Of a stretch of 64,000 nucleotides of DNA, positions 23,821 to 53,726 are shown piece after piece. The notes beneath the pieces are model-generated. The model was not told the DNA's origin and ran no database searches. It worked only from the letters and a program-made list of their open reading frames with translations. Made by a program: the position numbers and the translations under genes. The DNA lies in NCBI GenBank assembly GCA_964347045.1, contig CAYFXC010000001.1, positions 187,256-251,255 on the forward strand, given 5' to 3'. Position 1 is the first letter of the stretch, and every line of letters starts with the position of its first letter. Source of the stretch: an uncultured archaeon. GTDB taxonomy: Archaea; Asgardarchaeota; Hermodarchaeia; Hermodarchaeales; Hermodarchaeaceae.

Positions 23821-23955
23821 TGGTGGGCCGGCCGCGATTTGAACGCGGGATCACCTGAAAGGGGATTACTACAAAAAATAGTAACCGCGCCCCAGGCAGG
23901 CATCATACCAATCTAGCCATAGGCAGTTGCCGGTCGGGATCTAGACCACCGGCCC
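23821..23955 (-). tRNA. tRNA-Pro(GGG) with two non-canonical introns (23911-23938 D-loop; 23858-23887 at 39/40)
   Basis: Cloverleaf restored after removing BHB-bounded inserts; CCTGC-CT-GGG-GC-GCAGG arm; CCA encoded. Confidence 0.88.
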
Positions 23956-24063
23956 ACAGGCTTGTCTTAAGAATCTACAAGTCCTTTTAATGTCTTTTCT
24001 TGGAAGGTGATTTCATTACAAGCTAGAAATTAACTTTAACTCAAAAATTTACAATCCGAATTA

Positions 24064-25071
24064 CTATTGGCTTTTGACGTGTTTATTCTCAAGATATCCA
24101 TTTTCATAATACCAGTGAATCGATTGGCTCAAACCGTCCTGCATGGTAGTTTTGGGAATCCAACCCAGTAGTTTTTTGGCTTTTGCATTTGAATATGAAC
24201 GTTCTTCATCCATACTTTGAACAGTTTGCATATGCCACAAGAACGTCGTTTTTCCACGATTTTTGAAAGGACTTAATATTCCTATTCCAAATTTTGCTAG
24301 AGCAGTGGGAACTTTTCTGTGAGGGGGTTCCACGCCAAGTTTGGCTCCTAGGAAGTTGAATAACTCATTATAGGTCATGCCTTCATCGGGACAAAGAATT
24401 ATTATTTGGTTTTTTGCAGCTTTAGATTCAATAGCCGCTAGTATTCCACTAATCACATCTTCGACATACGTGTACATGATGGTTTTTTGGCCATCACCAG
24501 GAAGCATTGGAATTTTTTGTTCATTAACCGCTTCAATGGTTTCAAAAACGGTGTAAAGTTCACCTTCTCCTATTACACCAGTTGGACGAAGAATAACATA
24601 TTCAAGTGTAGTTCCAACTGAAGCGGCCCTTACAATTTCTTCTGCTTTCACCTTACTTTTCGAATATTCAAATTGTGGGCGAAGGGGTGAATCCTCGGTT
24701 CCAGGAGGATTTTCAACGGGTCCAATCACTTCTGTTGTAGATATGTAGATGAATCGATTAACAGCTGCTCTTACACACGCATTAACCAAATTTTGTGTTC
24801 CTTCAACATTCACTCTGTAAAGGAGCTTCTTGTCTTTAGGGTAGAAATTAAAATACGCGGCCAGATGAATAACAACATCAATGTCTTGGACCGCGGTTTC
24901 TAATGAAAAATTATCAGTCATATCTCCATCGATAAGCCGGAGTTTTTTGGGCAGGCTTTTTACGTCACTAGTTTTTCTGACTAGAGCTGTTACATCATGT
25001 TTCTCTTTGATTAATCTTGTCACGAGTTTCCGTCCGATAAATCCTGTTGCACCTGTGACAAGAATCTTCAT
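24064..25071 (-). CDS. NAD-dependent epimerase/dehydratase (extended SDR)
   Basis: GATGFIG, HLAA, YSKSK. Confidence 0.9.
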   Translation of the reverse strand: MKILVTGATGFIGRKLVTRLIKEKHDVTALVRKTSDVKSLPKKLRLIDGDMTDNFSLETAVQDIDVVIHLAAYFNFYPKDKKLLYRVNVEGTQNLVNACVRAAVNRFIYISTTEVIGPVENPPGTEDSPLRPQFEYSKSKVKAEEIVRAASVGTTLEYVILRPTGVIGEGELYTVFETIEAVNEQKIPMLPGDGQKTIMYTYVEDVISGILAAIESKAAKNQIIILCPDEGMTYNELFNFLGAKLGVEPPHRKVPTALAKFGIGILSPFKNRGKTTFLWHMQTVQSMDEERSYSNAKAKKLLGWIPKTTMQDGLSQSIHWYYENGYLENKHVKSQ

Positions 25072-25101
25072 TGACCTTACCGTTACATATTCGTAACTAA
25101 C

Positions 25102-25668
25102 TTATTTTTCATCAAAAGTCTTCACAGTTAAATCCTCATAGATCGGTCCCTTGGGGGTTAGCGTACTTTTCTTTAGCTTTATGTCTTTGACTTGGAATTT
25201 TCCAAATTCCATATTAGCATTCTGTTGAACCAATTTTATAAGATGATCTCGATTCAAACCGCTTCGCACTCTCACTACAGTTAAATGTGGCGAATACTTG
25301 CGCTTCTCTGCTGGAAATCCTTGTAATCGAAGTTCTCGACCAAGAAATTTCTGATGTTGAATAAGTTGTTCTGCACCAGTTTTACACCCAATCCAAATTA
25401 CCCGCGGTCTTTGTGGACGAAAGCAACCCAAACCTACGAGTTCAACATCAAACTCAGTTCCCTTAACCTTTTGAAGAATGCCAGCTAATTCTGGTATTCG
25501 TTTTTCCTCAATATTTCCGAGAAAATGAAGTGTAAAATGCAGATTCTGTGGTTCGACAAGTTTCAGTTTTGCTCCACTTGATAGGAGGTCTTGCTGAATT
25601 TTTTGAATCTGTCGTATTACTTCTGAATCATTAACTTCTACTGCAATAAAACTCCGAATCTCAGTCAT
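25102..25668 (-). CDS. thpR: RNA 2',3'-cyclic phosphodiesterase (2H, ThpR/LigT)
   Basis: RSFIAV, two HxT motifs (HFTL, HLTV), STLTPKGPIY. Confidence 0.93.
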   Translation of the reverse strand: MTEIRSFIAVEVNDSEVIRQIQKIQQDLLSSGAKLKLVEPQNLHFTLHFLGNIEEKRIPELAGILQKVKGTEFDVELVGLGCFRPQRPRVIWIGCKTGAEQLIQHQKFLGRELRLQGFPAEKRKYSPHLTVVRVRSGLNRDHLIKLVQQNANMEFGKFQVKDIKLKKSTLTPKGPIYEDLTVKTFDEK

Positions 25669-25768
25669 CTTACATCAACACTTTGTTTTATCGATAAATC
25701 AGCAGGAAACTTTATATCATTCTCCATTACCAAAGGCGAACAGCTCGCTTCTGGGAGGCATTGATTGG

Positions 25769-26887
25769 TTGAAGACAAAAAAATCATCTCGTTCACGAAA
25801 ACCGCATACTGAAATTTCACGAACACCTGATGACAGGCTGACCCAACAAATCATTCCCGCCAAAGAAGTTGTTTTACGCCCTGCAGGTTATCCCCTTGAA
25901 GTTAATAGTGCTCCGGTAAATCCTTTACTTCGTATTCGGGATGAAAAGCTCTTTACCGCATATGCTGTTGACCAATGGCAAGGAATCCGAGTAAAACCAA
26001 CTGATTATTTATTTGATCAACTGCTCCTCCCTGATTTTGCCTTTGAAGTCGTTTCAGTTATTCCAACAGAAGCCCATATCGTTTCTGATACTAAGATTCG
26101 GCTTATTGAACCCCCTGAAGTATTCCCGACAAAGGGTCGTAAAATTAGTTTTAATGACGTTATTGGTCATGAAGAGGCAAAGGCAAAATGCCTTATTATT
26201 CAAAAATATATTGCTGACCCTTCTCGGTTCGCAGAATGGGCACCTCGACGAGTACTTTTCTATGGGCCTCCTGGTACAGGTAAAACAATGTTGGCCCGCG
26301 CGCTTGCTTGGGAGACGGAAACTGAATTTGCATATGTGAAGGCAACTTCACTAATTGGACAACATGTTGGCGCAGGAGCTGACAAGGTCAATAAGTTCTT
26401 TGAAGACATTGTTCGGAAGAAACCATGTATTGTGTTCATTGATGAGATTGACTCAATCGGGCTCGATCGTGGTTTCCAATCGGTCCGTGGTGATGTCACA
26501 GAAGTTGTGAATTCTCTCATCTCCCAGTTTGATTTAATTGAAGATCAAGAGGCCGTTGTTGTAATTGCAGCAACGAATAGTAGGGATTTCTTAGACCCTG
26601 CCCTACGAAGCCGATTCGAGGAAGAAATTATTTTTCCTCTACCCAATTTTAGTGACAGACTGAAAATTCTAAAGAAATATTCATCAAGTTTACCAATGCG
26701 TGTTGATGCAGATTTGGACTCTATTGCTCGACGTACAGAAGGCTATTCAGGGCGAGATTTGAAAGATCGTGTCTTGAAAGGAGCACTTCATCATGCCCTT
26801 TCAAAGGGGCTTTCGACTATCGATGAATCTACATTCCAACATGTAGAAATCCTTCACGACTCCAAGGATAAGCGCTTGTATAAGTAA
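25769..26887 (+). CDS. Archaeal AAA+ ATPase (COG1223-like)
   Basis: LRPAGYP N-domain, [28 protein letters not shown]. Confidence 0.88.
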   Translation: MKTKKSSRSRKPHTEISRTPDDRLTQQIIPAKEVVLRPAGYPLEVNSAPVNPLLRIRDEKLFTAYAVDQWQGIRVKPTDYLFDQLLLPDFAFEVVSVIPTEAHIVSDTKIRLIEPPEVFPTKGRKISFNDVIGHEEAKAKCLIIQKYIADPSRFAEWAPRRVLFYGPPGTGKTMLARALAWETETEFAYVKATSLIGQHVGAGADKVNKFFEDIVRKKPCIVFIDEIDSIGLDRGFQSVRGDVTEVVNSLISQFDLIEDQEAVVVIAATNSRDFLDPALRSRFEEEIIFPLPNFSDRLKILKKYSSSLPMRVDADLDSIARRTEGYSGRDLKDRVLKGALHHALSKGLSTIDESTFQHVEILHDSKDKRLYK

Positions 26888-26903
26888 TCCTACATTTTGA
26901 ATC

Positions 26904-27470
26904 GTGGTTATGTTGCCCGTGAAAAAAGCCGTAATTTTTTGTGGGATGCCGGGTTCAGGGAAATCCGTCGGCGTTACCATAGCGAAAGATCTTGGAATTC
27001 CTGTCTTTGTGATGGGTGATGTGGTTCGTGAAGAAGTGACTTGTCGGCACCTTCCTCACAATCCTCAGACGCTCGGACAAGTCATGATTGAACTCCGCGA
27101 GCAGTTTGGACCAGCGGTTATTGCAGAACGAATTATTGAAAAATTCCTAGACATATCTGAATCAGATGTGATAATTGACGGAGCAAGAAGTGAAGCGGAA
27201 ATCAAGGTGTTTCGAGAGACAATAAATCAAGTACTTGTCGTTGCGGTGCATGCTGCGCCACGCATTCGATTTGAACGCCTTCGTCAGCGTTGTCGTGAGG
27301 ATGATGCAATAACTCAAACTACATTTCATGAAAGAGATATTCGCGAACTCGATGTCGGATTAGGTCGGATAATTGCTCAGGCAGATATAATGATTGTTAA
27401 TGAAGGCGAATATGACGAACTCAAAGAAAATATACGCCAGGTTCTCACACAAATATTTGGTTTGGACTAA
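26904..27470 (+). CDS. UPF0200 P-loop kinase (dephospho-CoA kinase-like)
   Basis: GMPGSGKS, MGDVVREE, IDGARS, RDIREL. Confidence 0.85.
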   Translation: MVMLPVKKAVIFCGMPGSGKSVGVTIAKDLGIPVFVMGDVVREEVTCRHLPHNPQTLGQVMIELREQFGPAVIAERIIEKFLDISESDVIIDGARSEAEIKVFRETINQVLVVAVHAAPRIRFERLRQRCREDDAITQTTFHERDIRELDVGLGRIIAQADIMIVNEGEYDELKENIRQVLTQIFGLD

Positions 27471-27490
27471 ATAACGGGGGGGCACTACTA

Positions 27491-27928
27491 ATTATCTCAG
27501 TTAGATTATGGGCGGACATTAAACCAACTGAGAATATCCAAAAAGTCAAGATGGCTTTTAAAAACCTGTGTCCACCAGTAGTTTTTGAGACCAAACAAGA
27601 TCCTGAATTAGGGCTGGTTCTCATTGGAAAAGCCACTGGACCCGAATCGATTGCAATGTTTGCAAAGAAGTTTCGTGAACAACGCATTCTTGAAGCTGTC
27701 AGACAACAACTACTCAAATCAATTCAAGACAATACAGTAAAATTTGGGATACAACGGCAAGCAGCCGTCGTGAATCGGTTTCATCTTTGTGACATCAGTG
27801 ATTTTTCTGCGATGGGTCCAATACTGGTTGAAATTCAAGCAATCAACATTCAAGATGTAATTGATTATGTAACCCCTCCAACTGTTAAAGGTAAACCTCA
27901 GGTGCGTAATAATCTCCAACTCAAATGA
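27491..27928 (+). CDS. UPF0201/DUF54 RNA-binding protein (start upstream of ORF-track call, non-canonical)
   Basis: In-frame IISVRLWADIKPTENIQKV precedes MAFKNL; QRILEAVR, RQAA. Confidence 0.78.
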   Translation: MISVRLWADIKPTENIQKVKMAFKNLCPPVVFETKQDPELGLVLIGKATGPESIAMFAKKFREQRILEAVRQQLLKSIQDNTVKFGIQRQAAVVNRFHLCDISDFSAMGPILVEIQAINIQDVIDYVTPPTVKGKPQVRNNLQLK

Positions 27929-27941
27929 TGTTTTGGCTCCA

Positions 27942-28868
27942 TCAATTTGAAGGCGTGAGTTCTATGCAATCTAAATCCTTGGGTGCGAAACTTTCAGGAA
28001 AGATTGACTTTGCCTCTTTTTCATGTTCTTCGCTGGACGAATATCGAGGGCTAATGTGAACTAATGCAAGATGAGTAGCTTTCGCTTCAGCAGCTATTTG
28101 AGCTGCCTGTGCTGCCGTAGAGTGTAGGTATTTGATCGCATTCTCCAGATGAGATGTAATAAATGTCGCATCATGAATCAATAAGCTGGCATTCTTAGCT
28201 GCCTTAGCTAAACTCTCGTTTGGCGCGGTATCTCCTGAAAACACAATGATATGTCCTTTTCGCGTTGGTCCTAACACATCTTTAGGCGTGACAATCCTAC
28301 CTTCACAAGTTTCGATTGATTGTCCTTGATACAGACGTTTGCGAAGGGGGCCTGAGGGAACTCCAAGTTGTTGGGCTTTTTTAACATTGAATTTACCCGG
28401 AATGTCTGCCATTTGCAAAACGTATGAAAGGGACGGAATATTGTGAAGAGCAGGCAGACATTTTACACGGTACTGCTCTTGATCTGAAATAATTCCTTTC
28501 TTCACGTCCTTAATTGATAATTCGAAATCAACATGTGTGTGAGTTAATTCCAAGGTGGTTTCGATAAATTTCTTCATACCTGCTGGTCCATTGATTGTTA
28601 GGGCGTTGGTTCGTTTGAGCAAAACCATCGTCGAAATAAGTCCTGGTAGTCCCCAAACGTGATCCCCATGGAGATGTGAGATGAATATTTCTCTAATCCG
28701 CTGTGGGCTGAGACCTACTCGTTGTAATTGTAGTTGAGTTCCCTCACCACAATCGAAGAGCAAGAGTTTCCCCTGGAAATAAGTGGCGATTGCAGGTGGA
28801 GCTTGTGTTACTGAAGGAATACCTCCACCCACACCTAAGAAATGCACTCTTACAGTTTTTTTAGTCAT
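27942..28868 (-). CDS. rnz: Ribonuclease Z
   Basis: FDCGEGTQ, HLHGDH, SGDT, HDATF, HST, HISPRY. Confidence 0.95.
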   Translation of the reverse strand: MTKKTVRVHFLGVGGGIPSVTQAPPAIATYFQGKLLLFDCGEGTQLQLQRVGLSPQRIREIFISHLHGDHVWGLPGLISTMVLLKRTNALTINGPAGMKKFIETTLELTHTHVDFELSIKDVKKGIISDQEQYRVKCLPALHNIPSLSYVLQMADIPGKFNVKKAQQLGVPSGPLRKRLYQGQSIETCEGRIVTPKDVLGPTRKGHIIVFSGDTAPNESLAKAAKNASLLIHDATFITSHLENAIKYLHSTAAQAAQIAAEAKATHLALVHISPRYSSSEEHEKEAKSIFPESFAPKDLDCIELTPSN

Positions 28869-28869
28869 G

Positions 28870-29928
28870 TTATTTCCGCTCCAAAACAACAATGTGACGA
28901 TAGAGACTTCGATGAATGCGCATGGTATGGGTCTCTTTGATAATGAACCTATCAGAAGGTATTAGGTTCTCCTTGTAATATTCTAACGGCAAGGCAAGAC
29001 ATAGATATCCTCCTGGTTTCAGAACTTTGGCAAACGATGTCAAGCTTGCTACAATCAGATTGACAATTGCAGTTCCTTTTGTCGAACTCGATCGCCCGTA
29101 TGGTGGGTCGGTAGCGAGGGCGTCAAAACTTTCTTCTCGTATCGGTGGTTCCCGAGCGTCCGCCAAGCCTCCATAAAACGGTACTTCAAAATGAGCAAGA
29201 TTTTGTTGACTTCCTGCAACCATGGAAACATCAATATCTAGCCCAATTGGAATACACCCAATCTCGGCTGCCTCGAGAAGAAGACCTCCTGTTCCGCAAA
29301 AGGGATCGAGGAAATTGTTCCCAGGAGAAGCACGGCTTAGATTTACCAGAACTCGCGCTATTTTAGGGTGGATAGCACTGGGAACAAAAAAGGGTCGGAA
29401 GGGGCTTCGTCGCTGTGAAAAACCTTTTCGACCACGTGAAGCTAGGTGTGGTCCAAAAAAGAACTGATTTCCGTTTATCACTCCAAAAAATAATACGTCA
29501 GGGGAAGTTAAGGAAATCTCGATTTCCCCATTCATTGCCTTCCATATTTCAGAACCAATTTTCCCTTGTAGTTCGTCCACATTGAATTCAGACGCTTCTC
29601 GTCTAATTCGTGTGACCTTTACACCGAATCGACTTTTAGGGCGAATCAACTTGGTAAAATCCATCTTTTTGAGTGCTTGGAGAATCATAGTCTCTTCAGA
29701 AGTCGATTCGAACACCACAACACTTGCATGATTCACTAATCCTGCTCTTTGAACGGCAATTCGGGCCCCCTCCGAATCTACCTCCATCAATAGGATTCGT
29801 CTATCACGACTCTTAATTGAATACGAAAATCCCTCAGATTCTAATATTGCACAAAGTTCCGCCTGTGGTAGCGTTTCATGCTCACCTGACAAGATGAATA
29901 GACATAATTTTACCTCAGGCGGGGTCAC
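28870..29928 (-). CDS. tRNA (guanine10-N2) methyltransferase, THUMP + MTase (Trm11/TrmG10)
   Basis: LSGEH.TLP, DPFCGTGG, TDPPYGRSS, RIHRSLYR. Confidence 0.88.
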   Translation of the reverse strand: MTPPEVKLCLFILSGEHETLPQAELCAILESEGFSYSIKSRDRRILLMEVDSEGARIAVQRAGLVNHASVVVFESTSEETMILQALKKMDFTKLIRPKSRFGVKVTRIRREASEFNVDELQGKIGSEIWKAMNGEIEISLTSPDVLFFGVINGNQFFFGPHLASRGRKGFSQRRSPFRPFFVPSAIHPKIARVLVNLSRASPGNNFLDPFCGTGGLLLEAAEIGCIPIGLDIDVSMVAGSQQNLAHFEVPFYGGLADAREPPIREESFDALATDPPYGRSSSTKGTAIVNLIVASLTSFAKVLKPGGYLCLALPLEYYKENLIPSDRFIIKETHTMRIHRSLYRHIVVLERK

Positions 29929-30383
29929 AATAGGTCCTCCAAATTTAGTACCATAATTATTGCATCTTCTCCATTCTCGTAGTATTTACGGCTTCGCTTT
30001 GTTTCTCGGAAATTGTGCTTTTGATAGAAGGCTTTCGCACTATGGTTCGAAACTCTTACCTCTAAAACTAATTCTCTACAATTATGCGCTCTAAGAACAT
30101 CAATTAGCGCATGAAGTAGTTGCCGGCCAATTCCTCTACGGCGTTTTTTTCTTCTGACTGCGAGGGAAAGTAATTGGCCCCTATTGAATCCAGCTCTATG
30201 ATTAATTTCTCCAACGATATATCCAAGAAGGACAGTGTTTTCAACTGCAACTAAGAACAAAGCTGGCGCATAATCCGCTAGGTATTGAAAAAGATGGAGT
30301 GGGTAAGGGTCAGAAAAGGATTCGAACTCAATTTGCGCAATTTGCAATAAATCGGTTTTTTTAATTGGGCGAATTGATATCAT
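29925..30383 (-). CDS. rimI: N-terminal acetyltransferase Ard1/RimI
   Basis: RRRGIG, LEVRVSN..A..FY, YYENGEDA. Confidence 0.9.
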   Translation of the reverse strand: MISIRPIKKTDLLQIAQIEFESFSDPYPLHLFQYLADYAPALFLVAVENTVLLGYIVGEINHRAGFNRGQLLSLAVRRKKRRRGIGRQLLHALIDVLRAHNCRELVLEVRVSNHSAKAFYQKHNFRETKRSRKYYENGEDAIIMVLNLEDLL

Positions 30384-30456
30384 TACAAGAATTCCTTGCA
30401 GTGGATTGAAATATGTGTGAGGTTCTGGGTCTTATGAAGTGCTGAGGCGACTGTTC

Positions 30457-32633: not shown

Positions 32634-32639
32634 ATCAGT

Positions 32640-33353: not shown

Positions 33354-33365
33354 TCTATATCGATC

Positions 33366-33692
33366 CTATTCAGGGGTTCTAACAGTCTCTTCAATCCATT
33401 GAAGGTAGGGCTTATGACCTTCTTGGATTTCGATTCTGACTATTTCAGGGACCTCATAGCTATGCATGTTTAGCACGGTTTCTCTTAGTTGGTTAAACAT
33501 GTCTTTTCTTGTTTTTATTAAGAGCAAAATCTCGGCATCTTCTACGATTTCTCCTTTCCAAGAATAAATCGATTTTTGGGGAATCATTCCAACACATGAT
33601 GCAAGCGAGTCTTTAACCAGTTTACGTCCAATCCTTTTGGCTTCATTCATTTTACCTACAGTAACGAATACAATACTGTACTGAGATGACAT
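33366..33692 (-). CDS. cutA: Divalent-cation tolerance protein CutA
   Basis: SIYSWKG, LLIKT, HSYEVPEI, YLQW. Confidence 0.95.
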   Translation of the reverse strand: MSSQYSIVFVTVGKMNEAKRIGRKLVKDSLASCVGMIPQKSIYSWKGEIVEDAEILLLIKTRKDMFNQLRETVLNMHSYEVPEIVRIEIQEGHKPYLQWIEETVRTPE

Positions 33693-35994: not shown

Positions 35995-36340
35995 GGACGG
36001 AAGCCCCGACGGTCGTCAACCCTCACTGATGCCGTACTCACCGCTAGGTCTCAGACCCGGATCTCGGAAGCATCAACAGTACAGGTTTACGCTGCTCCCT
36101 CCCGGGTCTCGCTGGGTTCACCTGATAAAGACGATTCAGCCCTTCCTACGAAAAGCCTACCGCCACCAGCGATCCTCCGAGGCGGATCGTCACTGCCTTG
36201 AACAGTGAGTCGTACAACAGGTCAGAAAGCCTAACGTCGGCATTCAGCCCGCCGTAGAGAGCATCTGCGGTACAGGGGAGCCTTAGCCAGCCCGTAGCGG
36301 TGCTGCGGGACTTCTAGCCCCCCGCCTAGGCTCACCGTCC
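35995..36340 (-). ncRNA. ffs: Archaeal SRP (7S) RNA with a 31-nt insertion in Alu helix 3
   Basis: Terminal helix GGACGG/CCGTCC; Alu GGGGG..TCCCC-TGTA-CCGC; helix 6 with GGAG; helix 8 GAGACCC-GGGA-GGG-AGCAG. Confidence 0.9.
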
Positions 36341-36911: not shown

Positions 36912-36997
36912 TGGCGCCGAGGACGAGATTTGAACTCGTGAGTCCTATGGACACAGACTTAGCAGGCCTGCTCCCTACCAGGCTAGGATACCTCGGC
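36912..36997 (-). tRNA. tRNA-Ser(GCT)
   Basis: Cloverleaf with long variable arm, CAGGC-CT-GCT-AA-GTCTG, G73-CCA. Confidence 0.96.
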
Positions 36998-37512: not shown

Positions 37513-37621
37513 TGGTGGGCCGAGAGGGATTTGAACCCTCGACCATCGCGGTGTAAGCGCGATATCATAGCCTTCTAGTCTAAAAGGGAAAAACCCATGA
37601 AGATAGCTAGACCATCGGCCC
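37513..37621 (-). tRNA. tRNA-Val(TAC) with D-loop intron (37573-37604)
   Basis: TCGCG-CT-TAC-AC-CGCGA; CTAG/CTAG BHB helix flanking a 32-nt insert. Confidence 0.92.
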
Positions 37622-42641: not shown

Positions 42642-42731
42642 AACTACACGCTCTCTGTAATGATAAGGATGAAGCGAAAATGCGGGGGCTCGCTATTTAA
42701 GCATTGCTGACTTGACAGGGTCTCTTCACAA

Positions 42732-44037
42732 TTATAATTCGTCAAAAGTGTGAATGCGCATTTTCGCTGGTTTCTTAACAATATTACCCACTCGTACTCC
42801 GATTATTAATTCGATGCCGCGATTTTCTGCGATGTCAATAAGTCGTTGGGTCACAACGCCATCTAATATGAGGACTTTTGCTTTTTTGAGTTCTTGTAGT
42901 TCGTTTGCTAGCTCCCCAACATGAGTTTCTTTGAGTTGTTTGAAGTCATCATCCAAAATAACAGACATCATCGTCTGCTGAATTTTTTCAGCTGAGCTAA
43001 GGATGGGTTTTGGTAAACCCAAATCTTTTACCATAGGTTCGGGTTTTTTAGCCGGCTTTGTTCGCGTAGGAGGACGCGTCTTCTTAGGACGCGATTCCTT
43101 AGGTTTTTTGGCTGGAGCCCTACGAGTGCGCTTCTTTTCTTTTACTTTATCCGGCGTGGAGGGTGTTTTGCTTTTAGGTCTTCCAATAACTTGTACAGAT
43201 GGAACCTTATTTCGGAGGGCTTTTGTTACTTCTTTATGTGTTAATTCTTCGACTTCTCTTCCTGTTGGTGCACGTGCCACATAATCGACTTTAATAACTT
43301 GTGAGAGCTCTTTGAAAATCAGGTCTCCTCCACGATCTCCGTCTAAGAATGCAATAACGGTTTTATCCTTTGCAATGTCTGCAATTGATTTTGGAATCGA
43401 TGTTCCCTCGACGGCGACAGCATTTTTAACACCTGAGCGTAGAAGGGCGAGTACGTCAGCACGTCCTTCCACAATAATGATGGTGCTTGAGGTTTTTGCT
43501 TCTGGCCCAGCGGGAAGTTTTTCTTTCCCAAGTTTAATAATCTCTGCAGTACGTGCCTCTCGTAATACTGTATCTGTCATTTCTTGGGAATCAGGAGAAA
43601 TTTCTCCTTCCCAATCACGAAGGAGATCAACTGCACGATCAATGATTTGTTTACGCTTCTCTTCTCTGACATCCTCTACTTTTTCGAGACTGATTTTAGC
43701 AGCACACGGACCAACTCTATCAACTGTTTCAATTGCCGCTGCAAGAATTGCAGTTTCTGTTCTATCAAGACTACAAGGTATTGTGATGGTACCTTGTGAT
43801 TTTCCACTTTCAGTATGAAGTTCAACTTTTATTCGACCAATTCGCCCCGACTGTTGTAATTCCCTTAGGTCCAAATCTTCACCGATTACCCCTTCACATC
43901 TATGATATGAAGTGTAGGCCCTCTGTTTGACCAAATAGAGCACCTACCACATCGGGGGTTTCAACTACTCCATCTATTTCGATTTTTCCACGAATACAAT
44001 ATTTTGTGGTTCCAGTACTTTCCGCATTTGCTCCCAT
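42732..44037 (-). CDS. dnaG: Archaeal DnaG (exosome-associated primase-like), interrupted by a 28-nt BHB intron at 43886-43913
   Basis: Exon 1 [19 protein letters not shown]; exon 2 [32 protein letters not shown]; 1306-28=1278 nt, in frame. Confidence 0.93.
43886..43913 (-). other. Putative mRNA intron with bulge-helix-bulge splice motif
   Basis: GCCT/GGGT 4-bp helix, 3-nt bulges ACA and AAT, inner 9-bp hairpin CTTCATATC/GATGTGAAG. Confidence 0.85.
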
Positions 44038-44175: not shown

Positions 44176-44595
44176 TTAAAACTTTGTGCCTTTCGAAGGT
44201 TTGTCTGTTTGTTTTAGGCCTTCTATCACACGAACTCGCCAAGTAAAGGCTCGCTTAAGCTGATATCTTTCTCGATGAAGTATAGTCACACCACGACCTT
44301 CTAGCTGTTTAATTAAATGCCGTGTTAGTTGTCCTCCCCGTCTATCAAAATCAAATAAAATGAGCACGCGACGAGAATTTGATAGTTGATCTGCTAAACT
44401 AACTATATTATGTCCGGCCATAGCATATATTGGTCCTGTTAATCCTAGTCCACGTAGCGCTGTAATATCCTTAATACCTTCCACAACAATTGATATACCA
44501 TCATCAGAGAGTTCAGTTAATAATCGCAGCCCTCTTTCAAAACGCTCTTCTAATTTTTCCTGTTTCGATCGAGTCGCTTTTCGTTGTGGACACAT
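44176..44595 (-). CDS. Small TOPRIM domain protein (UPF0292-like)
   Basis: IVVEGIKD..ALR.LG, ILFDFDRRG. Confidence 0.88.
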   Translation of the reverse strand: MCPQRKATRSKQEKLEERFERGLRLLTELSDDGISIVVEGIKDITALRGLGLTGPIYAMAGHNIVSLADQLSNSRRVLILFDFDRRGGQLTRHLIKQLEGRGVTILHRERYQLKRAFTWRVRVIEGLKQTDKPSKGTKF

Positions 44596-44716
44596 AAAAG
44601 TCGCCTAATTTACTGCTTAGGGTACCATTCATCCTTATTCATATTTGTTAAGACACCTAATGCGGTGTACTTTTATATCACACAGAATAAGCCCGAGTCA
44701 CAAAGAAGTGTTATCT

Positions 44717-45814: not shown

Positions 45815-45823
45815 CTTATGGGT

Positions 45824-46687: not shown

Positions 46688-46702
46688 CTGAACGTTGATG
46701 AT

Positions 46703-47004
46703 TCGAAGAAGTGGTGGGTCGCACCTGCTCTGCTGACCGATACACTAACGCCCCGTCATCATTGGTGGGCGGAACGCCTTTTTCCTCTGACAGGTCCTCT
46801 CTTAATATGTCGGGCATGATGAGTGGTTTGCGACCCGGCGTTGAAGTGTGGACATCGTGGGTTGCCCCCACAGTCACCTCTTGACGACCCGTCATAGATC
46901 ATGCAGGAGCCTGTCACATGCCGCATAACCTTCAACGCTGCTCCAGTGTTGCCACAAATTTGCACGAATCCTCATCAGAACGAATTCTTCGGGTTCGTCC
47001 TCGA
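46703..47004 (-). ncRNA. Unassigned ~300-nt structured RNA
   Basis: Nested long-range stems TCGAGGA/TCTTCGA, GCGTTGAAG/CTTCAACGC, GGGTCGCA/TGCGACCC, TCATCAT/ATGATGA; GCAA loops; no credible ORF. Confidence 0.6.
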
Positions 47005-47067
47005 TGGTGGCTAATATCCTTTCATTGCAACTATCAGAACGGAAACGGCGCCTCAAAAACGCTTTCA

Positions 47068-47562
47068 CTATTGCCTTGAAACCCCATGGTAAATGATTCG
47101 ACCATCTCGGTCGATTTGTCCGGCTCGTATTCGAGTTGACGAAATGGAAATCTGATCTTCTGCTTTCACCATTGTTAATACAGCGATGTGTAAAAGCGGC
47201 AAATCATGCTCGCGACGGATTTCATTGATTTCTTTAGCGACGGGACAGGTTTCTTCACTGACCACAATCAGTTCGAGTTCGGGCATTGTAATGGAAGGTC
47301 CATATTTGTTGTGTAACGGTCGGATGATATATCGTCCGGTGTAACTCTCTGCATTTAACCATTTTTCAAGTTCATTTTTCCGTTCATCATAACTTGCTAT
47401 GATTTTCCAATCAGGTTTGTGCTTTACCATGTCTTGGGTCGTTAATCCAATAAGAACCTGTTTACCTAGCTCGAAGGCACGACGGAGAAGCGTCCTATGA
47501 CCTTTATGTAATTGGTCAAAAGTTCCACCAATGGCCACCCATTCATATGGTTCCTCAGACAA
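47068..47562 (-). CDS. coaD: Phosphopantetheine adenylyltransferase (archaeal/eukaryotic type)
   Basis: GGTFDQLHKGH, IVVSEET, ISSTRIR; TTG start after GAGGAG. Confidence 0.92.
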   Translation of the reverse strand: MSEEPYEWVAIGGTFDQLHKGHRTLLRRAFELGKQVLIGLTTQDMVKHKPDWKIIASYDERKNELEKWLNAESYTGRYIIRPLHNKYGPSITMPELELIVVSEETCPVAKEINEIRREHDLPLLHIAVLTMVKAEDQISISSTRIRAGQIDRDGRIIYHGVSRQ

Positions 47563-47642
47563 GACGCACTCCTCATGTCTTGCATAAGTGTTCAGCTGAA
47601 AAAGGTTTAGCACATGCCACGATTCGAATACCACATACGATT

Positions 47643-48749
47643 CTATGCTATTCCGATGGTATTTCCAATACCTGCAATGATGACTGTGTCGCCTTTCTTG
47701 GTGCGTAACAGAACTGCGTTTTTCATTCTTTCAACCACTTTGGGTACTGCATCGACGAGAGATTTTTTCATTGGGGCAAGGGCGTCTTCTAAGGCTTCTT
47801 TAATAACAATTGCATCAATGGGAATTTCGTGTTTGACACCTGAATCTTCCATCTTGAATTTCTCTGGTCCAGGATCACCAATAGCTGCACCAACACCTTC
47901 AATCACTTGTCCCGTCTCTTCTCCTTCAAGTTTCAAGCCGGCATCAACTGTGATGATCCGTGCAACTTTACCCTTTTTTCGTTCAACAACCCTCCGGATA
48001 CCTTCACCTGGTTTACCAACCTGGCTTCCATATCCTTTGGCCCGAATAAACCACAAAGTGCGTCCTTCAAATTGACCTGATAGGGCAACTGTATGTTGTG
48101 CTATTTCTTCTGGTTCACCCGCATTAATTTCTCGCGCAAAGTGAGCAACTGCTAATGGTCCCATCCCATCTCCGATAGGTTTCCCATCTGCGAAAGCACG
48201 GGTTGCTTCAAAGTATGCTTTTGCCATTTGAATAATCATCGGGAGTTGCATCTGCAACTGCATAGTATAGTAAATACTCTTCGTTTTTTTACCTAACAAA
48301 TAGAAATGGCGGACAATCCGATATACCTGATTTAGTGCCATAGCACCTGAGAGTACAGCTTCAGCATTAGCCTGTTGTTCTGGTGACGCCTTCGGGGCAA
48401 TCCTTGCGACTTGATCTTCATATCGCGTGGTTCTTACATCAAGCACATGTTCTAATCTTTGCAAAACACCTGCGGGATCAACATTTACTGGCTCGATGAC
48501 GAAAAATTCCATGAAATCATCAACCGTTGATTTGACATCTTTTTCGTCGACTTTTAAATCTTTGAACGCTTTAGTTGCAATGTTCTTTCCCTGTTTAGCC
48601 AAGACTTCAAGCTGTCTAAGCCCGGCTTCTGCTTGACGTTGCCAAATGTAGGACTGCAGCCGGGTTCCATACAGATAAATGAAAATGAAAAAGATTAGAA
48701 AAATAACTTGGAAAATCCAATTGAAATCGCCAAGGGGAACTTGTAACAT
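47643..48749 (-). CDS. DUF1512 family protein
   Basis: DPAGV, PIGDGMGP, ITVDAGLKLEGE.TG, GIGNTIGI. Confidence 0.88.
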   Translation of the reverse strand: MLQVPLGDFNWIFQVIFLIFFIFIYLYGTRLQSYIWQRQAEAGLRQLEVLAKQGKNIATKAFKDLKVDEKDVKSTVDDFMEFFVIEPVNVDPAGVLQRLEHVLDVRTTRYEDQVARIAPKASPEQQANAEAVLSGAMALNQVYRIVRHFYLLGKKTKSIYYTMQLQMQLPMIIQMAKAYFEATRAFADGKPIGDGMGPLAVAHFAREINAGEPEEIAQHTVALSGQFEGRTLWFIRAKGYGSQVGKPGEGIRRVVERKKGKVARIITVDAGLKLEGEETGQVIEGVGAAIGDPGPEKFKMEDSGVKHEIPIDAIVIKEALEDALAPMKKSLVDAVPKVVERMKNAVLLRTKKGDTVIIAGIGNTIGIA

Positions 48750-48852
48750 TGTTCATCACGTGTTTATGCTAGTGTCGGAACGGTTTCAACGCGAAATAAA
48801 AACCTTTGCTTACTGTCAACCTGAAACGATTAAGTTGGTGAAAGGAAAAGAA

Positions 48853-48972
48853 GTGGCGCAGTTCACACTTTTCCCGACACCTCTCGGATATCAGTACTCA
48901 GCGCGACGAAACCGGCTTAACTTCCGGGATCTGACGAGACCGGGTGTGGCCCAGCTTCTATGACCGCGCCAC
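48853..48972 (-). rRNA. rrf: 5S rRNA, stand-alone with own TATA (TTTTTATA about 20 nt upstream)
   Basis: Helix I GTGGCGCGG/CTGCGCCAC, ACCCGGTCTCGTCAGATCCCGGAAGTTAAGC, loop E AGTA..GGGAA. Confidence 0.93.
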
Positions 48973-49026
48973 CCAGCACACTTCTCCCCCGCTATAAAAA
49001 TGTTGTGAACTCTTAGATGAGAAAAG

Positions 49027-49103
49027 TGGTGGGCTGGCCGGGATTTGAACCCGGGACCACGAGGTCCCAAACCTCGCATCATACCGAACTAGACTACCGG
49101 CCC
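49027..49103 (-). tRNA. tRNA-Pro(TGG)
   Basis: CGAGG-TT-TGG-GA-CCTCG; C5:A68 mismatch; CCA. Confidence 0.94.
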
Positions 49104-49168
49104 AGCATTGAACATGGGATACTAAAGAGAGTTGAAAAACCTTTGCACAATTTAGCTCTTCCGATACC

Positions 49169-49831
49169 CTAACCTCCCGCCAATCGTTCAAACCGAAACC
49201 GAATGTAATAGTACGGCTTCCCCTCCGTGAAATTGACCTTCGGAGGCCTTGCAATAATCCCGAAATGCTTCTTCAAAAGACCCACAAGCTCATTCAGAAA
49301 CCCCCTGTCCTTCTGCTTCAACTGCACTCTCTTCTTATCAATAAAACCATCCGCATCAATTAACCCAAACATATAATGCTTAAAGAGCGAAGCATCATCT
49401 GCAATCAACGCAGGAACCCTAATATTTCGTTTCTTTCCTGATTGAAAACCCAAAGCAATGAAAAAGAAAAAAACCGCCGCACAGTTGATATTGATAGCGT
49501 AACAATTCTTCTTTCTTTTATCTCTATGAATGCGTGGCTGATAATGAAAGAGCTCTCGGATTAGAACTGATAACTGTTCCATGTAATTTTTCCGACCCAC
49601 AACATTTACTCGATAATAGTACCCCCCTATCTTGCGTTTACACTTGTTCAGGTTACCATCACCCGCAACAACACCAGCAAAATATGCAACTTTTTCGCAA
49701 AGTTTCGGGATTTTTATTCGTGTTTTTTTTGTGCAAATAAAGTCATTCTGAATTCTATGCCATACACGAGCTTCACTCAGAGCCTGCGAAATTACATTTA
49801 CATCTAAACTCTTCATTCCAACAGTTTGCAT
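49169..49831 (-). mobile_element. Free-standing double-motif LAGLIDADG homing endonuclease-like ORF
   Basis: YFAGVVAGDG and YMFGLIDADG motifs; Lys-rich; lies between two tRNAs. Confidence 0.85.
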
Positions 49832-49862
49832 CTAAAAATATCTAAAAACCCATTAACTGAAA

Positions 49863-49937
49863 TGGAGCCTCCGCCGGGATTCGAACCCGGGACCACTGGC
49901 TTACAAGGCCAGAGCACCACCACTATGCTACGGAGGC
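49863..49937 (-). tRNA. tRNA-Thr(TGT)
   Basis: CTGGC-CT-TGT-AA-GCCAG; U73-CCA. Confidence 0.96.
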
Positions 49938-50057
49938 TTAATTTCAGTTATACATACACGGTTGATTAATGATTCGGAGGGAATCAGGGTATTGTGGGTT
50001 GCTTACGGAAATGGCTAAAAAATGTTTTTATGGTTAGGAATGATGCTGGTCGTGTGT

Positions 50058-50606
50058 TCAAGGGGTTGAATGTGTAAGTGTTCCTTCGCGAACGCACACG
50101 TGGGTGGTGTTTGCTGGGGGTGTTTGGAGAGCTTTTCGTAAGAAGGCTGGGTAGAGGGGGCAGGTTTCGAGTGCGGTTAATGGATACCACTTGAAGATAA
50201 TGGTATGTCCGTTTTCTTCTCCGAGAAATGTCTCCTGTTCGTAAAGCGGCGAGGGTTCGGGAAACCGACACAGGTAGTAGAACCCAATCTCATGAGATGG
50301 CGTTAGGAATATCGGGTGGGTTGGGCCTGATCCTTCTTCATGCTGAAAGAAGTTTTCTACAACCCATAGGAGTCGTTCAATTTGGACGGGGCTCTTGGTC
50401 TCCTCGAGCATCTCGCGTTTCAGTGCCTGCTCCGTAGTTTCCAGATGTCGTACTCGCCCTCCAGGGAGCGCCCAGAAATCCCATCCCTCTACTTGGTGTA
50501 GCAACACACGATTGTCTTGGAAGACCACACCAGCGGTACGTAACATGAACCGCCCTGTTCCAACTGGAAAGAAAATCATGGCGTCCAAGAACTGTAGGCA
50601 TCTCAT
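50058..50606 (-). CDS. NUDIX hydrolase
   Basis: LPGGRV..ETTEQALKREMLEE Nudix box; true start may be 50579. Confidence 0.9.
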   Translation of the reverse strand: MRCLQFLDAMIFFPVGTGRFMLRTAGVVFQDNRVLLHQVEGWDFWALPGGRVRHLETTEQALKREMLEETKSPVQIERLLWVVENFFQHEEGSGPTHPIFLTPSHEIGFYYLCRFPEPSPLYEQETFLGEENGHTIIFKWYPLTALETCPLYPAFLRKALQTPPANTTHVCVREGTLTHSTP

Positions 50607-50709
50607 ATTTCTTTTGTCTTTGACTGCTATCTCCTGAGTTGGGGAATTATTTCGTGCGCGATGTGTTCAACTTTGGGAAATTGGAAGTCGGTTAAGAACA
50701 TGAGAAAAA

Positions 50710-50820
50710 TGGTGCGGGGGCCGGGCTTCGAACCCGGGAACTCCTACGAGACAGGATCTTAAGTCCTGCGCCTTTGACCAAGCTTGGCTGTGGGGTCACT
50801 GTGGTGGGTGATACCCCCGC
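50710..50820 (-). tRNA. tRNA-Leu(TAA) with intron at position 8/9 (50790-50812)
   Basis: CAGGA-CT-TAA-GA-TCCTG, long variable arm; strict BHB GC-GGGG-GTA-TCAC / GTGA-CCCC-ACA-GC. Confidence 0.9.
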
Positions 50821-50990
50821 GGCTTAGTCATGTGGGGCGCTGACCCTTGGACACGCCCCCGCATTTGTGTTGGGGTGACAAGGTTGTTTTGGTGCTTAAA
50901 ATTGCTTCGTGTGGCTGCTTGGAGCGCGGTTTGTGATTTGGAGGCGTTCTGAGAATAATGCTTAAAAGGTACGGGCGGTGGTTTAGTGCT

Positions 50991-51172
50991 GCCGAGGTAG
51001 CTTAGCCTGGTTGAGCGCCAGACTTGCAGCTACTTAAGTAACAAGGGTGTAACTCATAGGGCTTTGCCCCAGGGTCAAGATTTGATGATTGCTGGCGCAC
51101 CGGAGAAATCTGGAGGTCGCGGGTTCGAACCGAAGTCGGGTGGATTTCGCGGAACGCCCGCCCTCGGCACCA
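50991..51172 (+). tRNA. Elongator tRNA-Met(CAT) with three introns (51022-51051, 51059-51107, 51130-51155)
   Basis: GCCGAGG/CCTCGGC A73; spliced arm CCAGA-CT-CAT-AA-TCTGG; strict BHBs at 30/31 and 59/60, relaxed at 37/38. Confidence 0.87.
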
Positions 51173-51185
51173 TTGACGTTGCTGG

Positions 51186-51262
51186 GCCTCGGTGGCATAG
51201 CATGGTAGCGCATCGCCTTGGTAAGGCGAGGGTCGCGGGTTCGAATCCCGCCCGAGGCTCCA
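51186..51262 (+). tRNA. tRNA-Thr(GGT)
   Basis: TCGCC-TT-GGT-AA-GGCGA; U73-CCA. Confidence 0.95.
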
Positions 51263-51370
51263 CTCTCTTACGGCCTAATAGAATTCTTTATTTCCAAGAC
51301 TGTGATGAATTTTTAAGGGTCGGGATGGTTGAAGTGCTATGCTCGCTTTAGTGTTGTCAGGTGACTTAGG

Positions 51371-52057
51371 TTGATGGTTGATGAGGAAAAGCGGTTTGCT
51401 GCTGAAGCTGCGATAAACCATGTTTCTGACGGTATTTGTCTAGGAGTAGGCACAGGATCTACGGTTGAGATATTCATCGATTTATTAGTTGAAAAAATCG
51501 CCACGGAAAACATTACTTTAACGGCGGTTCCTAGTTCGTATGCTACTCAGTTGCGCCTGCACGATGCTGGAATAACTACCGTACCACTTGGTGCTGTCAC
51601 TAGCTTAGCCTGTGCAGTGGATGGTGCTGATGAAGTGGATGCAAAACTTGCCCTGATTAAAGGCGGTGGAGCAGCACTCCTACGCGAAAAAATCTTAGCT
51701 GAAGCCGCAAACCAAGTTGTCATCATCGTTGATAGTGCTAAACTCGTGGATAAACTTGGAACTAGGATGCCAGTTCCAGTTGAAGTGCTTCCTGATGCCT
51801 TGGCGCTGTCAATGGATCGGATTCAACGCCTTGGTGGTTCACCAATGCTTCGACAAGGTGAAAGAAAGGCGGGACCAGTTATCACTGATAATGGTAATTT
51901 CATTTTGGATGTTACGTTTCAAAAAATTTCTGATTCAAGGAAGTTAGAGTCTCAACTAAATGCAATACCTGGCGTGATTGAAAATGGTCTTTTTCCAACA
52001 CAAGCTGATGTTGTCTACGTGGGCCAAGCGAAAGGTGTACAATTACTTGAAAGATAA
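51371..52057 (+). CDS. rpiA: Ribose-5-phosphate isomerase A
   Basis: GVGTGST, DGADEV, IKGGGAALLREK, TDNGN. Confidence 0.97.
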   Translation: MMVDEEKRFAAEAAINHVSDGICLGVGTGSTVEIFIDLLVEKIATENITLTAVPSSYATQLRLHDAGITTVPLGAVTSLACAVDGADEVDAKLALIKGGGAALLREKILAEAANQVVIIVDSAKLVDKLGTRMPVPVEVLPDALALSMDRIQRLGGSPMLRQGERKAGPVITDNGNFILDVTFQKISDSRKLESQLNAIPGVIENGLFPTQADVVYVGQAKGVQLLER

Positions 52058-52105
52058 ATCGAAACATGCATATAGCATCAGGTTCTCTCCAAACTAGGAA
52101 GGTTT

Positions 52106-52226
52106 GGGCCCGTGGCCAAGTCGGATAGGATCTTCCCCCGGAGAAGGCGCCAGCCTCCTAAGCTGGAAATCCCGGGTTCGAAAGTGTTCATTGAATTTGA
52201 CGCCGAAATTCCCGGCGGGCCCGCCA
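52106..52226 (+). tRNA. tRNA-Arg(CCT) with two non-canonical introns (52127-52143 D-loop; 52183-52209 at 59/60)
   Basis: CCAGC-CT-CCT-AA-GCTGG; BHB helices TCGG/CCGG and TTCG/CGAA. Confidence 0.92.
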
Positions 52227-52242
52227 TTCTATTACCCACGCG

Positions 52243-52842
52243 TCATTTATTTGCAACAATATCGGCAGGTGATACAAGATAATAGGTTGTTTCTCCTTGC
52301 CGATCTAATACAGCCAGCATCAGTTTCTTGCGGTTTCGTTTCGCCTGTTTGCTAAATGCCTCTAGCTGTCCTACCTTCAGAGGTGATCCTTCTGAGATTG
52401 CGCAGACAAAGTATTTTGCTGTAGCTTCGTTGAGTTTTGCTCCCCGTGGGTAAACTCGAAACAATAATCCTTTCCCATATCCTGTTCGAACCACATATCC
52501 ACGGCTTCGTAAATCACTATAGACAAGAAAACGAGTCCAAAGCCCAGGACGGTTCTTCGCTAAGCGTTCAAGTAATGCCGAAAAATCAAGGATTTCGCCT
52601 TGTGCTTCGCTCACCTCAATCCGCTGGCGTCTCACTAACAATAAGGCTTCTTCCGGTTCAAGCGTTAACTTTTGTTCATCTTTCAATGTTCCATAATAGC
52701 CCGCTTCATATAATACGGGGGCATATTCACCTTTTATACTGACTTTTCCCCGTGTTAATATTGCCTGAATAGGTTCGTCGGGAAGCTGAGAGTGCTCTTC
52801 TTCTGACGAAGGTGGTTCCTGTTTCTTTTTTATCATTAACAT
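52243..52842 (-). CDS. endA: tRNA-splicing endonuclease subunit, probably structural beta
   Basis: EEALLL, VYSDLRSRGYVVRTG, FRVY, RKKLMLA, TTYY; catalytic KY/FG and His motifs not seen. Confidence 0.85.
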   Translation of the reverse strand: MLMIKKKQEPPSSEEEHSQLPDEPIQAILTRGKVSIKGEYAPVLYEAGYYGTLKDEQKLTLEPEEALLLVRRQRIEVSEAQGEILDFSALLERLAKNRPGLWTRFLVYSDLRSRGYVVRTGYGKGLLFRVYPRGAKLNEATAKYFVCAISEGSPLKVGQLEAFSKQAKRNRKKLMLAVLDRQGETTYYLVSPADIVANK

Positions 52843-52902
52843 TCACCATTATCTGAAGCGACAAGAAGCGAAGCTATATAACATTCTTCCCGTTTCACTG
52901 AC

Positions 52903-53394
52903 TTGATGACATCTTGGAAAAAACGTCTTACCCAAGCCTTCCGCCAAGCATCCAATATTGCAATCCTTGGAATTGGAAATGATCTCAAAGGCGATGATGG
53001 CATCGGACCCTACGTAATCGAACAACTCCAAAACCGTAATCCCCCCCATATCGAGCTTATTAATGCAAGCACTGTTCCCGAAAATTTCATCAGTCATCTC
53101 ATCGAATCAAATCCCCAACTCATCCTACTCCTCGATGCCGCCCTAATGCAGACTGAACCAGGAACCATCAAACTCATTGATAAAGATACCATCGGAGGCA
53201 TTGTCTTTTCATCACACCAACTACCCCTTTCCTTCTTTATCGAATACTTAGAAAACAATATTACCACAACCATCCTCATCCTCGGTATCCAACCCTTCAC
53301 AGACGAATTCGCTCAACCCTTCTCTGAACCCGTCCAAAAAGCCGCTTCAGAAATCATCACCATGCTTTCCCGGCTTTTCACCAAAACCCTTTGA
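52903..53394 (+). CDS. hycI: Hydrogenase maturation endopeptidase HycI-like
   Basis: GIGNDLKGDDGIG, TVPENF, LDAA, SSHQLPL. Confidence 0.9.
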   Translation: MMTSWKKRLTQAFRQASNIAILGIGNDLKGDDGIGPYVIEQLQNRNPPHIELINASTVPENFISHLIESNPQLILLLDAALMQTEPGTIKLIDKDTIGGIVFSSHQLPLSFFIEYLENNITTTILILGIQPFTDEFAQPFSEPVQKAASEIITMLSRLFTKTL

Positions 53395-53435
53395 AAACTC
53401 TTATAAGCTATACCTTCAAACCTATTTTTCGCAAT

Positions 53436-53567
53436 CCCGGCGTAGCTCAACCTGGTAGAGCGTCTGGCTGTAGGTATACACCGCACCCTGAGCCACACGG
53501 CGATGACTCGGTGTCAACCAACGCAGATACCAGATGGTTCCTGGTTCAAATCCGGGCGCCGGGACCA
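53436..53567 (+). tRNA. tRNA-Tyr(GTA) with canonical 55-nt intron (53474-53528)
   Basis: C1-G72, TCTGG-CT-GTA-G^A-CCAGA; CTGT/GCAG BHB helix. Confidence 0.93.
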
Positions 53568-53618
53568 ATCCTTCCAGAAAAACCTTTAAATTCGCCCAAA
53601 TAACCCTCAAACCACTGC

Positions 53619-53726
53619 GCCCGTTTAGTGTAGCCAGGTCTATCATCTGGGACTGTCAAGGGTCTATGAAACTCATAGAGCTGCGGATCTCCTAGGACTC
53701 GGGTTCGAATCCCGGAACGGGCGCCA
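53619..53726 (+). tRNA. tRNA-Asp(GTC) with canonical 30-nt intron (53659-53688)
   Basis: TGGGA-CT-GTC-A^C-TCCTA; CTGT/GCGG BHB helix; G73-CCA. Confidence 0.93.

Follow-up and report, generated by a model that had tools for sequence, protein, structure and literature searches.

Short inserts interrupt seven of the eleven transfer RNA (tRNA) genes, the signal recognition particle (SRP) RNA gene and dnaG in a stretch of 64,000 nucleotides (nt) from an uncultured archaeon of the Asgard class Hermodarchaeia (assembly GCA_964347045.1, contig CAYFXC010000001.1, positions 187,256 to 251,255; hereafter, the window). Considered together with similar inserts in an elongation factor 2 (EF-2) paralogue on the same contig and in a 16S ribosomal RNA (rRNA) fragment, they are best explained as short bulge-helix-bulge (BHB) introns, or introns of the relaxed HBh' form, that a protein-only machinery would remove from tRNAs, SRP RNA, 16S rRNA, and at least two messenger RNAs (mRNAs; dnaG and the EF-2 paralogue), a reading to which we give a probability of roughly 0.8. 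The proposed machinery consists of a two-subunit tRNA splicing endonuclease (EndA) carrying a specificity loop of the Crenarchaea type and the ligase RtcB. In the mechanism that we envisage, 4 nt of the upstream exon would pair with 4 nt near the 3' end of the intron itself, EndA would cut 2 nt after each strand of the resulting central helix, and RtcB would join the exons, thereby restoring a cloverleaf, the helix-3 loop of the SRP RNA, or a reading frame. The anatomy of the inserts, their conservation, the precise intron-less alleles and the enzyme genes were observed directly, and from these we infer the cutting and joining of the RNAs.

A preliminary description of this DNA had proposed BHB introns in the tRNAs, SRP RNA and mRNA of a probable Asgard lineage, together with the spread of these introns by reverse splicing and the splicing of other frameshifted genes; the introns, the lineage and the Crenarchaea-type EndA withstood analysis, and the spread by reverse splicing and the broad invasion of frameshifted genes did not. 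The candidate inserts in dnaG (43886-43913, minus strand) and SRP RNA (36283-36313, minus strand) were located where the description had placed them and were present in every class relative examined. The assignment to Asgard archaea was likewise upheld, as the nearest dnaG loci among titled genomes belong to Hermodarchaeota/Promethearchaeota metagenome-assembled genomes (73-86% amino-acid identity), and the content of the window is archaeal (SRP RNA, 5S rRNA, tRNAs, rpoB, ATP synthase subunit D). The genome scanned comprises 2.58 megabases (Mb), and its class in GTDB has a single family, with 19 genomes divided between two genera. Motifs were scored by the base pairs (bp) in the central helix (H), the exon-exon helix (X) and the intron helix (Y), with cuts placed 2 nt after each strand of H.

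Interrupted protein-coding, SRP RNA and 16S rRNA genes

The dnaG gene is encoded on the minus strand as exon 1 (43914-44037; start ATG at 44037-44035), which ends inside the codons of GQTEGL-L, a 28-nt putative intron in phase 1 (43886-43913; GCCU AC|A, a 9-bp hairpin, GGGU AA|U), and exon 2 (42732-43885), which carries the Toprim domain. The insert holds a stop when read in the frame of exon 1 and breaks the conserved GQTEGL block after GL plus one base; removing the 28 nt restores both the frame and the motif. No other dnaG match was found in the genome. Each of the 20 class loci that were examined (12 distinct sequences) has the insert at the same place. Over the distinct sequences, pairing extends to 98% of cells, with hardly any variation in the 9-bp stem and free variation in the 3-nt loop.

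The stronger evidence for the dnaG intron is from outside the class. The motif is uninterrupted in a Woesearchaeota outgroup and in 16 other Asgard families sampled, and unrelated BHB inserts occur directly after the GQ codons in three further families, f7 (31-34 nt), f3 (32 nt) and f9 (32 and 40 nt). Each of these lies in the BHB register, its removal restores FGQ(T/L)EGL, and the central helix has undergone compensatory changes (GGCC/GGCU versus GGGC/GCCU; GGCC/GGCA versus GGUC/GACC). The Hermodarchaeia site is 13 nt downstream of the GQ|T site used in f3, f7 and f9. We offer only as a tentative suggestion that the GQ|T intron predates the split of these three families, that the Hermodarchaeia intron is a slid or re-gained copy, and that mRNA splicing by the tRNA endonuclease and RtcB is old and regular in Asgard archaea; were this so, the nearest archaeal kin of eukaryotes would long have relied on mRNA splicing to express essential genes of replication and translation, possibly in a regulatory capacity. 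A stand-alone Toprim open reading frame (ORF) of 139 amino acids (aa) was also found directly upstream of dnaG (44176-44595, minus strand).

The EF-2 paralogue is interrupted within the segment EEQRRG|ITIK by 30 nt that include an in-frame TGA. Inserts of 30-31 nt are present in 12 class genomes, and in all of them the spliced reading EEQRRGITIK (switch-I) is restored. Across these 12 genomes both helices show double compensatory changes, for example from A-U to G-C in H and among U-A, G-C and C-G in Y. Given this comparative evidence, the introns of dnaG and of the EF-2 paralogue are very likely spliced. Separately, two halves of a GTP_EFTU domain were found at two contig ends, one in the window (63603-63998, plus strand; profile positions 1-113) and the other on contig C7 (133086-133385, minus strand; profile positions 102-186), and they probably represent one elongation-factor gene cut by assembly.

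The SRP RNA gene (35998-36337, minus strand; Rfam RF01857, 119 bits) carries a 31-nt insert in the loop of helix 3 (36283-36313, minus strand), which forms a relaxed BHB (GGCU AG|A ... GGCU AA|G). Rfam aligns the whole SRP model and leaves 33 nt within the helix-3 loop where the consensus has 2. The insert is present in every one of the 16 class genomes in which an SRP RNA was matched (17 loci), and their SRP RNAs measure 338-342 nt. In most of the other Asgard families sampled the length is 307-319 nt, and the shortest of these RNAs to be read, that of f5, is without the insert. Cutting in the canonical register would leave helix 3 with the loop CUAGGGC, which is the loop of family f10, insert-free at that site. 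In two complete Atabeyarchaeia genomes, an unrelated insert of 31 nt lies 2 nt from this site and forms a strict CUAG/CUAG BHB; the predicted splice products of the Atabeyarchaeia and Hermodarchaeia RNAs share an identical 18-mer. Moreover, the AG|GGC of the helix-3 loop pairs with GCUCU of the helix-4 loop across the junction, and in other families the two strands covary (AGGGG opposite CCCCU or CCUCU; UGCCC opposite GGGCA). Splicing of the SRP RNA is thus likely, and we rate it below that of dnaG because the Hermodarchaeia SRP motif is relaxed, with a bulge of 4 nt. As a separate observation, an extra hairpin of about 20 nt or more stands between SRP helices 3 and 4 in loci L048, L049 and L051 (f7), L055 and L058 (f17), L054 (f18), and L047 (f10); the one read closely (f7) lies outside the BHB register and is perhaps not an intron but an expansion segment.

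A fragment of 16S rRNA at the end of contig C26 was located by motif, a covariance-model search of the genome for small-subunit rRNA having returned no match. It contains a 33-nt insert (27281-27313, minus strand; GCAC AC|A, an 8-bp hairpin, GUGU AA|A) that splits the universal segment GCACAC|ACCGCCCGUC of the decoding site in the 1390s.

The inserts of dnaG, SRP RNA, the EF-2 paralogue and 16S rRNA all have four of four pairs in H, and those of dnaG, the EF-2 paralogue and 16S rRNA have only the h' helix (X = 0-1), as does the D-loop intron of tRNA-Arg described below. The non-tRNA introns read, including the dnaG introns in loci L070-L099, have in common A-rich bulges (5' A-N|, 3' A-A|), lengths of 28-40 nt and almost no exon-exon helix, a signature that may mark a sub-class of substrates.

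Interrupted tRNA genes and the splicing enzymes

Eleven tRNA genes were recognized in the window by locus reading and BHB register scoring, all of them encoding CCA. ARAGORN called four without intron search and seven with it, Rfam found nine plus one weak match, and a scan of the window for further intact T-arm, acceptor and NCCA sites revealed none beyond the known genes. The preliminary description had counted eleven introns in seven of the eleven, eight of them at non-canonical sites, and this count was reproduced at exactly the positions it had listed: 8/9, the D-loop (three), 30/31, 39/40 and 59/60 (two).

On the minus strand, tRNA-Pro(GGG) (23821-23955) has a 28-nt intron in the D-loop (23911-23938, CTAG/CTAG) and a 30-nt intron at 39/40 (23858-23887), tRNA-Val(UAC) (37513-37621) has a 32-nt D-loop intron (37573-37604, CTAG/CTAG, X5 Y3), and tRNA-Leu(UAA) (50710-50820) has a 23-nt intron at 8/9 (50790-50812, GGGG/CCCC). 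On the plus strand, tRNA-Met(CAU) (50991-51172) is interrupted three times, at 30/31 (intron 1, 51022-51051, 30 nt), 37/38 (intron 2, 51059-51107, 49 nt) and 59/60 (intron 3, 51130-51155, 26 nt), with a middle exon of only 7 nt; tRNA-Arg(CCU) (52106-52226) is interrupted twice, in the D-loop (52127-52143, 17 nt, UCGG/CCGG, X0 Y2) and at 59/60 (52183-52209, 27 nt, TTCG/CGAA); and tRNA-Tyr(GUA) (53436-53567) and tRNA-Asp(GUC) (53619-53726) each carry a canonical 37/38 intron (53474-53528, 55 nt, and 53659-53688, 30 nt, respectively). The genes of tRNA-Ser(GCU) (36912-36997, minus strand), tRNA-Pro(UGG) (49027-49103, minus strand), tRNA-Thr(UGU) (49863-49937, minus strand) and tRNA-Thr(GGU) (51186-51262, plus strand) are intronless.

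For each interrupted gene, the introns were removed, or all single removals were searched, and the identity of the product was checked with ARAGORN. The intron-free versions of all seven were called as full-length tRNAs of the expected identity, the removals reported being those with the best BHB among the removals that gave the correct tRNA. Ten of the eleven introns have a central helix of 4 bp in the canonical register, the exception being Met 37/38, with three of four pairs. Strict motifs occur at Pro 39/40 (H4 X5 Y9), Met 30/31 (H4 X4 Y4), Met 59/60 (H4 X5 Y7), Arg 59/60 (H4 X5 Y5) and Leu 8/9 (H4 X2 Y4), and the D-loop intron of tRNA-Arg is a 17-nt mini-intron with H4 in which the outer exon-exon helix is absent. 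The inserts, at 17-55 nt, fall short of the hundreds of nt of group I or group II introns, and Rfam gives no intron family in the window. In tRNA-Met, the H strand of the 37/38 motif (CUCA) doubles as an outer-helix strand of intron 1, and the outer helix of 37/38 forms only once intron 1 is removed; the two motifs are mutually exclusive, which implies an order of removal.

The Leu-Met-Thr tRNA cluster was aligned from nine class genomes. Intron 1 of tRNA-Met is present in three of the nine (the source genome and two relatives) and precisely absent from two other genomes of the same genus and from all four of the second genus, where the alleles read CCAG|ACTCATA, exactly the predicted junction. 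All nine genomes have the two other Met introns and the 8/9 intron of tRNA-Leu. The presence and absence of Met intron 1 indicate that tRNA introns turn over within a genus. Splicing of the tRNA introns is almost certain.

Two further observations concern this cluster. Directly upstream of tRNA-Leu(UAA), at 50821-50866 (minus strand), the 5' strand of the acceptor (GCGGGGG) occurs once more in a hairpin ending CCCCAC, which is kept in all nine genomes and may serve to free the real 5' strand of tRNA-Leu for the 8/9 BHB. Intron 2 of tRNA-Met (51059-51107) includes a UGAUGA box as well as a CUGGCG segment conserved in the class, where the source genome has CUGGCGC, the complement of exon positions 24-30; no clear D box was seen in this intron, and we do not claim a C/D guide. 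Elsewhere among the tRNA genes, a free-standing LAGLIDADG ORF of 220 aa (49169-49831, minus strand; Pfam LAGLIDADG_3, 7e-10) sits between tRNA-Thr(UGU) and tRNA-Pro(UGG)/5S rRNA, outside any recognizable intron or intein.

The genome encodes two EndA paralogues. The first, on contig C7 (186 aa), matches the catalytic subunit alpha of A. pernix (3P1Z_B) at 6e-45 and contains the Tyr/His/Lys triad in FAVY, IDHS and VRKR; its Crenarchaea-specific loop (KPK) aligns without gaps to those of A. pernix and S. tokodaii (EKPR and SKPK), Lys included. The second lies in the window (52243-52842, minus strand; 199 aa, PF01974), 17 nt from the doubly interrupted tRNA-Arg gene. It is without the catalytic His, for which it has Thr when aligned to the EndA of M. 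jannaschii, and is likely the structural beta subunit. RtcB is also present in the genome (1e-171). The pair resembles the two-paralogue, broad-specificity EndA of Crenarchaea, with assembly as a heterotetramer and broad specificity predicted from these alignments.

Alternative explanations and the origin of the introns

Several results weigh against the removal of all of these inserts by EndA and RtcB. The outer exon-exon helix of the mRNA, SRP and 16S introns is only 0-1 bp, so that their removal would depend on the broad-specificity cleavage that is predicted for this EndA. The SRP motif is relaxed, its outer helix requiring a 4-nt 3' bulge, and the variation of the SRP insert within the class is one-sided only. 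Within the class, the dnaG structure lacks double compensatory changes and scores no better than shuffles, and is thus a case of conservation rather than statistical covariation. Lastly, frame-restoring BHB folds are not enriched genome-wide over decoys in any of four scan designs, each compared with three decoy pairing rules: the scans returned 7087 real versus 6304-8923 decoy folds for any strict BHB, 68 versus 56-114 with coding-potential and no-start-codon filters, 50 versus 32-72 for hairpin-only introns, and 177 versus 200-384 for the A-rich bulge signature at Y >= 5. Most of the noise arises at the boundaries of adjacent genes, and the cases of dnaG and the EF-2 paralogue are independent of this null because they are based on comparative evidence.

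The inserts of dnaG and the EF-2 paralogue could instead be left in place, the genes being pseudogenes, assembly errors or split proteins, or being rescued by frameshifting or ribosomal hopping. A frameshift or separate start is formally possible for dnaG, whose exon 2 frame extends upstream across the insert without a stop as far as a GTG at 43943, but the recurrence of the insert in 20 independently assembled class loci, in what is the genome's sole dnaG match, is difficult to reconcile with error or decay. The stem of the dnaG insert is kept at the nucleotide level and its loop varies at all three positions, which points to constraint on RNA rather than on coding; the EF-2 paralogue has its compensatory pair changes, and unrelated dnaG inserts of the same geometry stand in three other families. 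In both cases the intron also falls inside a codon (phase 1) that hopping would be unable to reassemble, and the matched take-off and landing codons of T4 gene 60-type bypass were not seen. We consider an unspliced fate for these two inserts very improbable. Retention of the SRP insert in the mature RNA as a lineage-specific expansion hairpin has in its favour the relaxed BHB, the one-sided variation within the class and the extra Alu-domain hairpins of other Asgard families, the one of which read closely (f7) misfits the BHB register. It is nonetheless unlikely: the insert sits within the 5-nt AG|GGC stretch whose pairing with the helix-4 loop covaries across families, both cuts fall in the canonical register and yield the loop of insert-free relatives, and the strict-BHB insert of Atabeyarchaeia, 2 nt away, leads to the same 18-mer.

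As for origin, the preliminary description had pointed to helices shared by unrelated tRNAs as a sign that short introns had spread from tRNAs into other RNA classes by reverse splicing as one pool. The shared helices are present (CTAG/CTAG in Pro and Val, TTCG/CGRA in Met and Arg), but they are uninformative on common origin because one strand is conserved exon (the T-loop TTCG or the D-arm CTAG) that the intron strand must complement. Other features would suit such a pool: introns come and go, as does Met intron 1 in the nine aligned genomes; the non-tRNA introns are alike in size (28-33 nt) and in their A-rich bulges (A-N|A, A-A|N); and both dnaG and the SRP RNA have two sites close together, within 13 nt and 2 nt, respectively. 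Set against these, the 14 introns compared resembled one another no more than shuffled sequences did (best score 15, against a null with a 99th percentile of 15 and a maximum of 20), no second genomic copy of any of the 14 was found, and a 2026 preprint came upon no general route of arrival when it tested for copying, mobile elements and reverse transcription in 90 Asgard genomes (10.64898/2026.10.13.758758). Spread by reverse splicing was thus not borne out, and we regard it as distinctly unlikely.

The same holds for the expectation that many other frameshifted genes in this genome are spliced, since the genome-wide scans gave no excess over decoys, an outcome that the preliminary description had itself named as grounds for refutation; only two convincing mRNA introns were found in the 2.58 Mb, those of dnaG and the EF-2 paralogue. 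Two further candidates were rejected. That at C8:115216-115244 is a gene junction, followed by the N-terminus of a methyltransferase, and that at C5:18000-18022 (LarE-like) is better fitted by a 1-nt frameshift, the supposed intron encoding the family-like IGILRVRDHG. The LarE-like PP-loop gene in question (locus L091; C5, about 17830-18560, minus strand) is broken by this apparent frameshift, the cause of which could be assembly error, pseudogenization or programmed slippage. A search with Pfam Robl_LC7 for interrupted roadblock genes found no stops inside matches.

Comparison with known splicing systems

Should the reading proposed here hold, single-copy dnaG, the EF-2 paralogue, SRP RNA and 16S rRNA of one Asgard archaeon would all need the tRNA splicing enzymes. 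Annotation pipelines would call dnaG and the EF-2 paralogue frameshifted pseudogenes and would miss many of the tRNAs (ARAGORN without intron search recovers four of eleven), and 16S primers at position 1392 would fail. Protein-only mRNA splicing would moreover occur in the lineage nearest to eukaryotes, in which the TSEN/RtcB system also splices an mRNA (XBP1/HAC1).

In the literature searched, endonuclease-type splicing inside an archaeal coding sequence is documented for one gene only, cbf5 of Crenarchaeota, whose pre-mRNA contains a BHB intron (PMC2738675). The introns described here are like that of cbf5 in being short, of BHB type, situated in coding sequence, presumed substrates of the tRNA endonuclease, and patchy with gain and loss. 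They differ in the genes affected (dnaG and the EF-2 paralogue), in the phylum and in the outer helix of 0-1 bp, the splicing of the present introns is a prediction, and dnaG is interrupted at two sites in four Asgard families.

The SRP RNA of Thermoproteus is circularly permuted and is matured via BHB cleavage and ligation (PMC4731332). It resembles the Hermodarchaeia RNA as a substrate of the tRNA splicing machinery in which processing restores (or, in Hermodarchaeia, would restore) the functional fold, whereas the Hermodarchaeia gene is collinear rather than permuted, with a simple 31-nt putative intron in the helix-3 loop. The EndA is comparable to the (alpha-beta)2 enzymes of Crenarchaeota (A. 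pernix, PDB 3P1Z/3AJV; PMC3241643, PMC5829648) in combining a Tyr/His/Lys catalytic subunit bearing a Lys loop with a His-less paralogue, and is unlike them in its Asgard host, its heterotetramer assembly and specificity being predicted from sequence.

Heavy interruption of tRNA genes has already been published for Asgard archaea (PMC11291895; 10.64898/2026.10.13.758758) and likewise for Thermoproteales (Sugahara 2008, as cited in PMC11291895). The introns described there agree with ours in occurring several to a gene, in being short and often in the D-arm or T-arm, in their BHB motifs, in the accompanying pair of EndA paralogues, and in gain and loss between close relatives; a class of the Hermodarchaeia type is not named in the sections of the Asgard studies consulted, and term searches of both gave no mention of introns in mRNA or SRP RNA. 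Our literature searches combining BHB with Asgard, DnaG, SRP RNA or protein-coding genes returned no report of these introns. New relative to this body of work are the dnaG inserts in three further Asgard families, the SRP intron of Atabeyarchaeia, the precise absence of Met intron 1 from some relatives, and the enzyme set.

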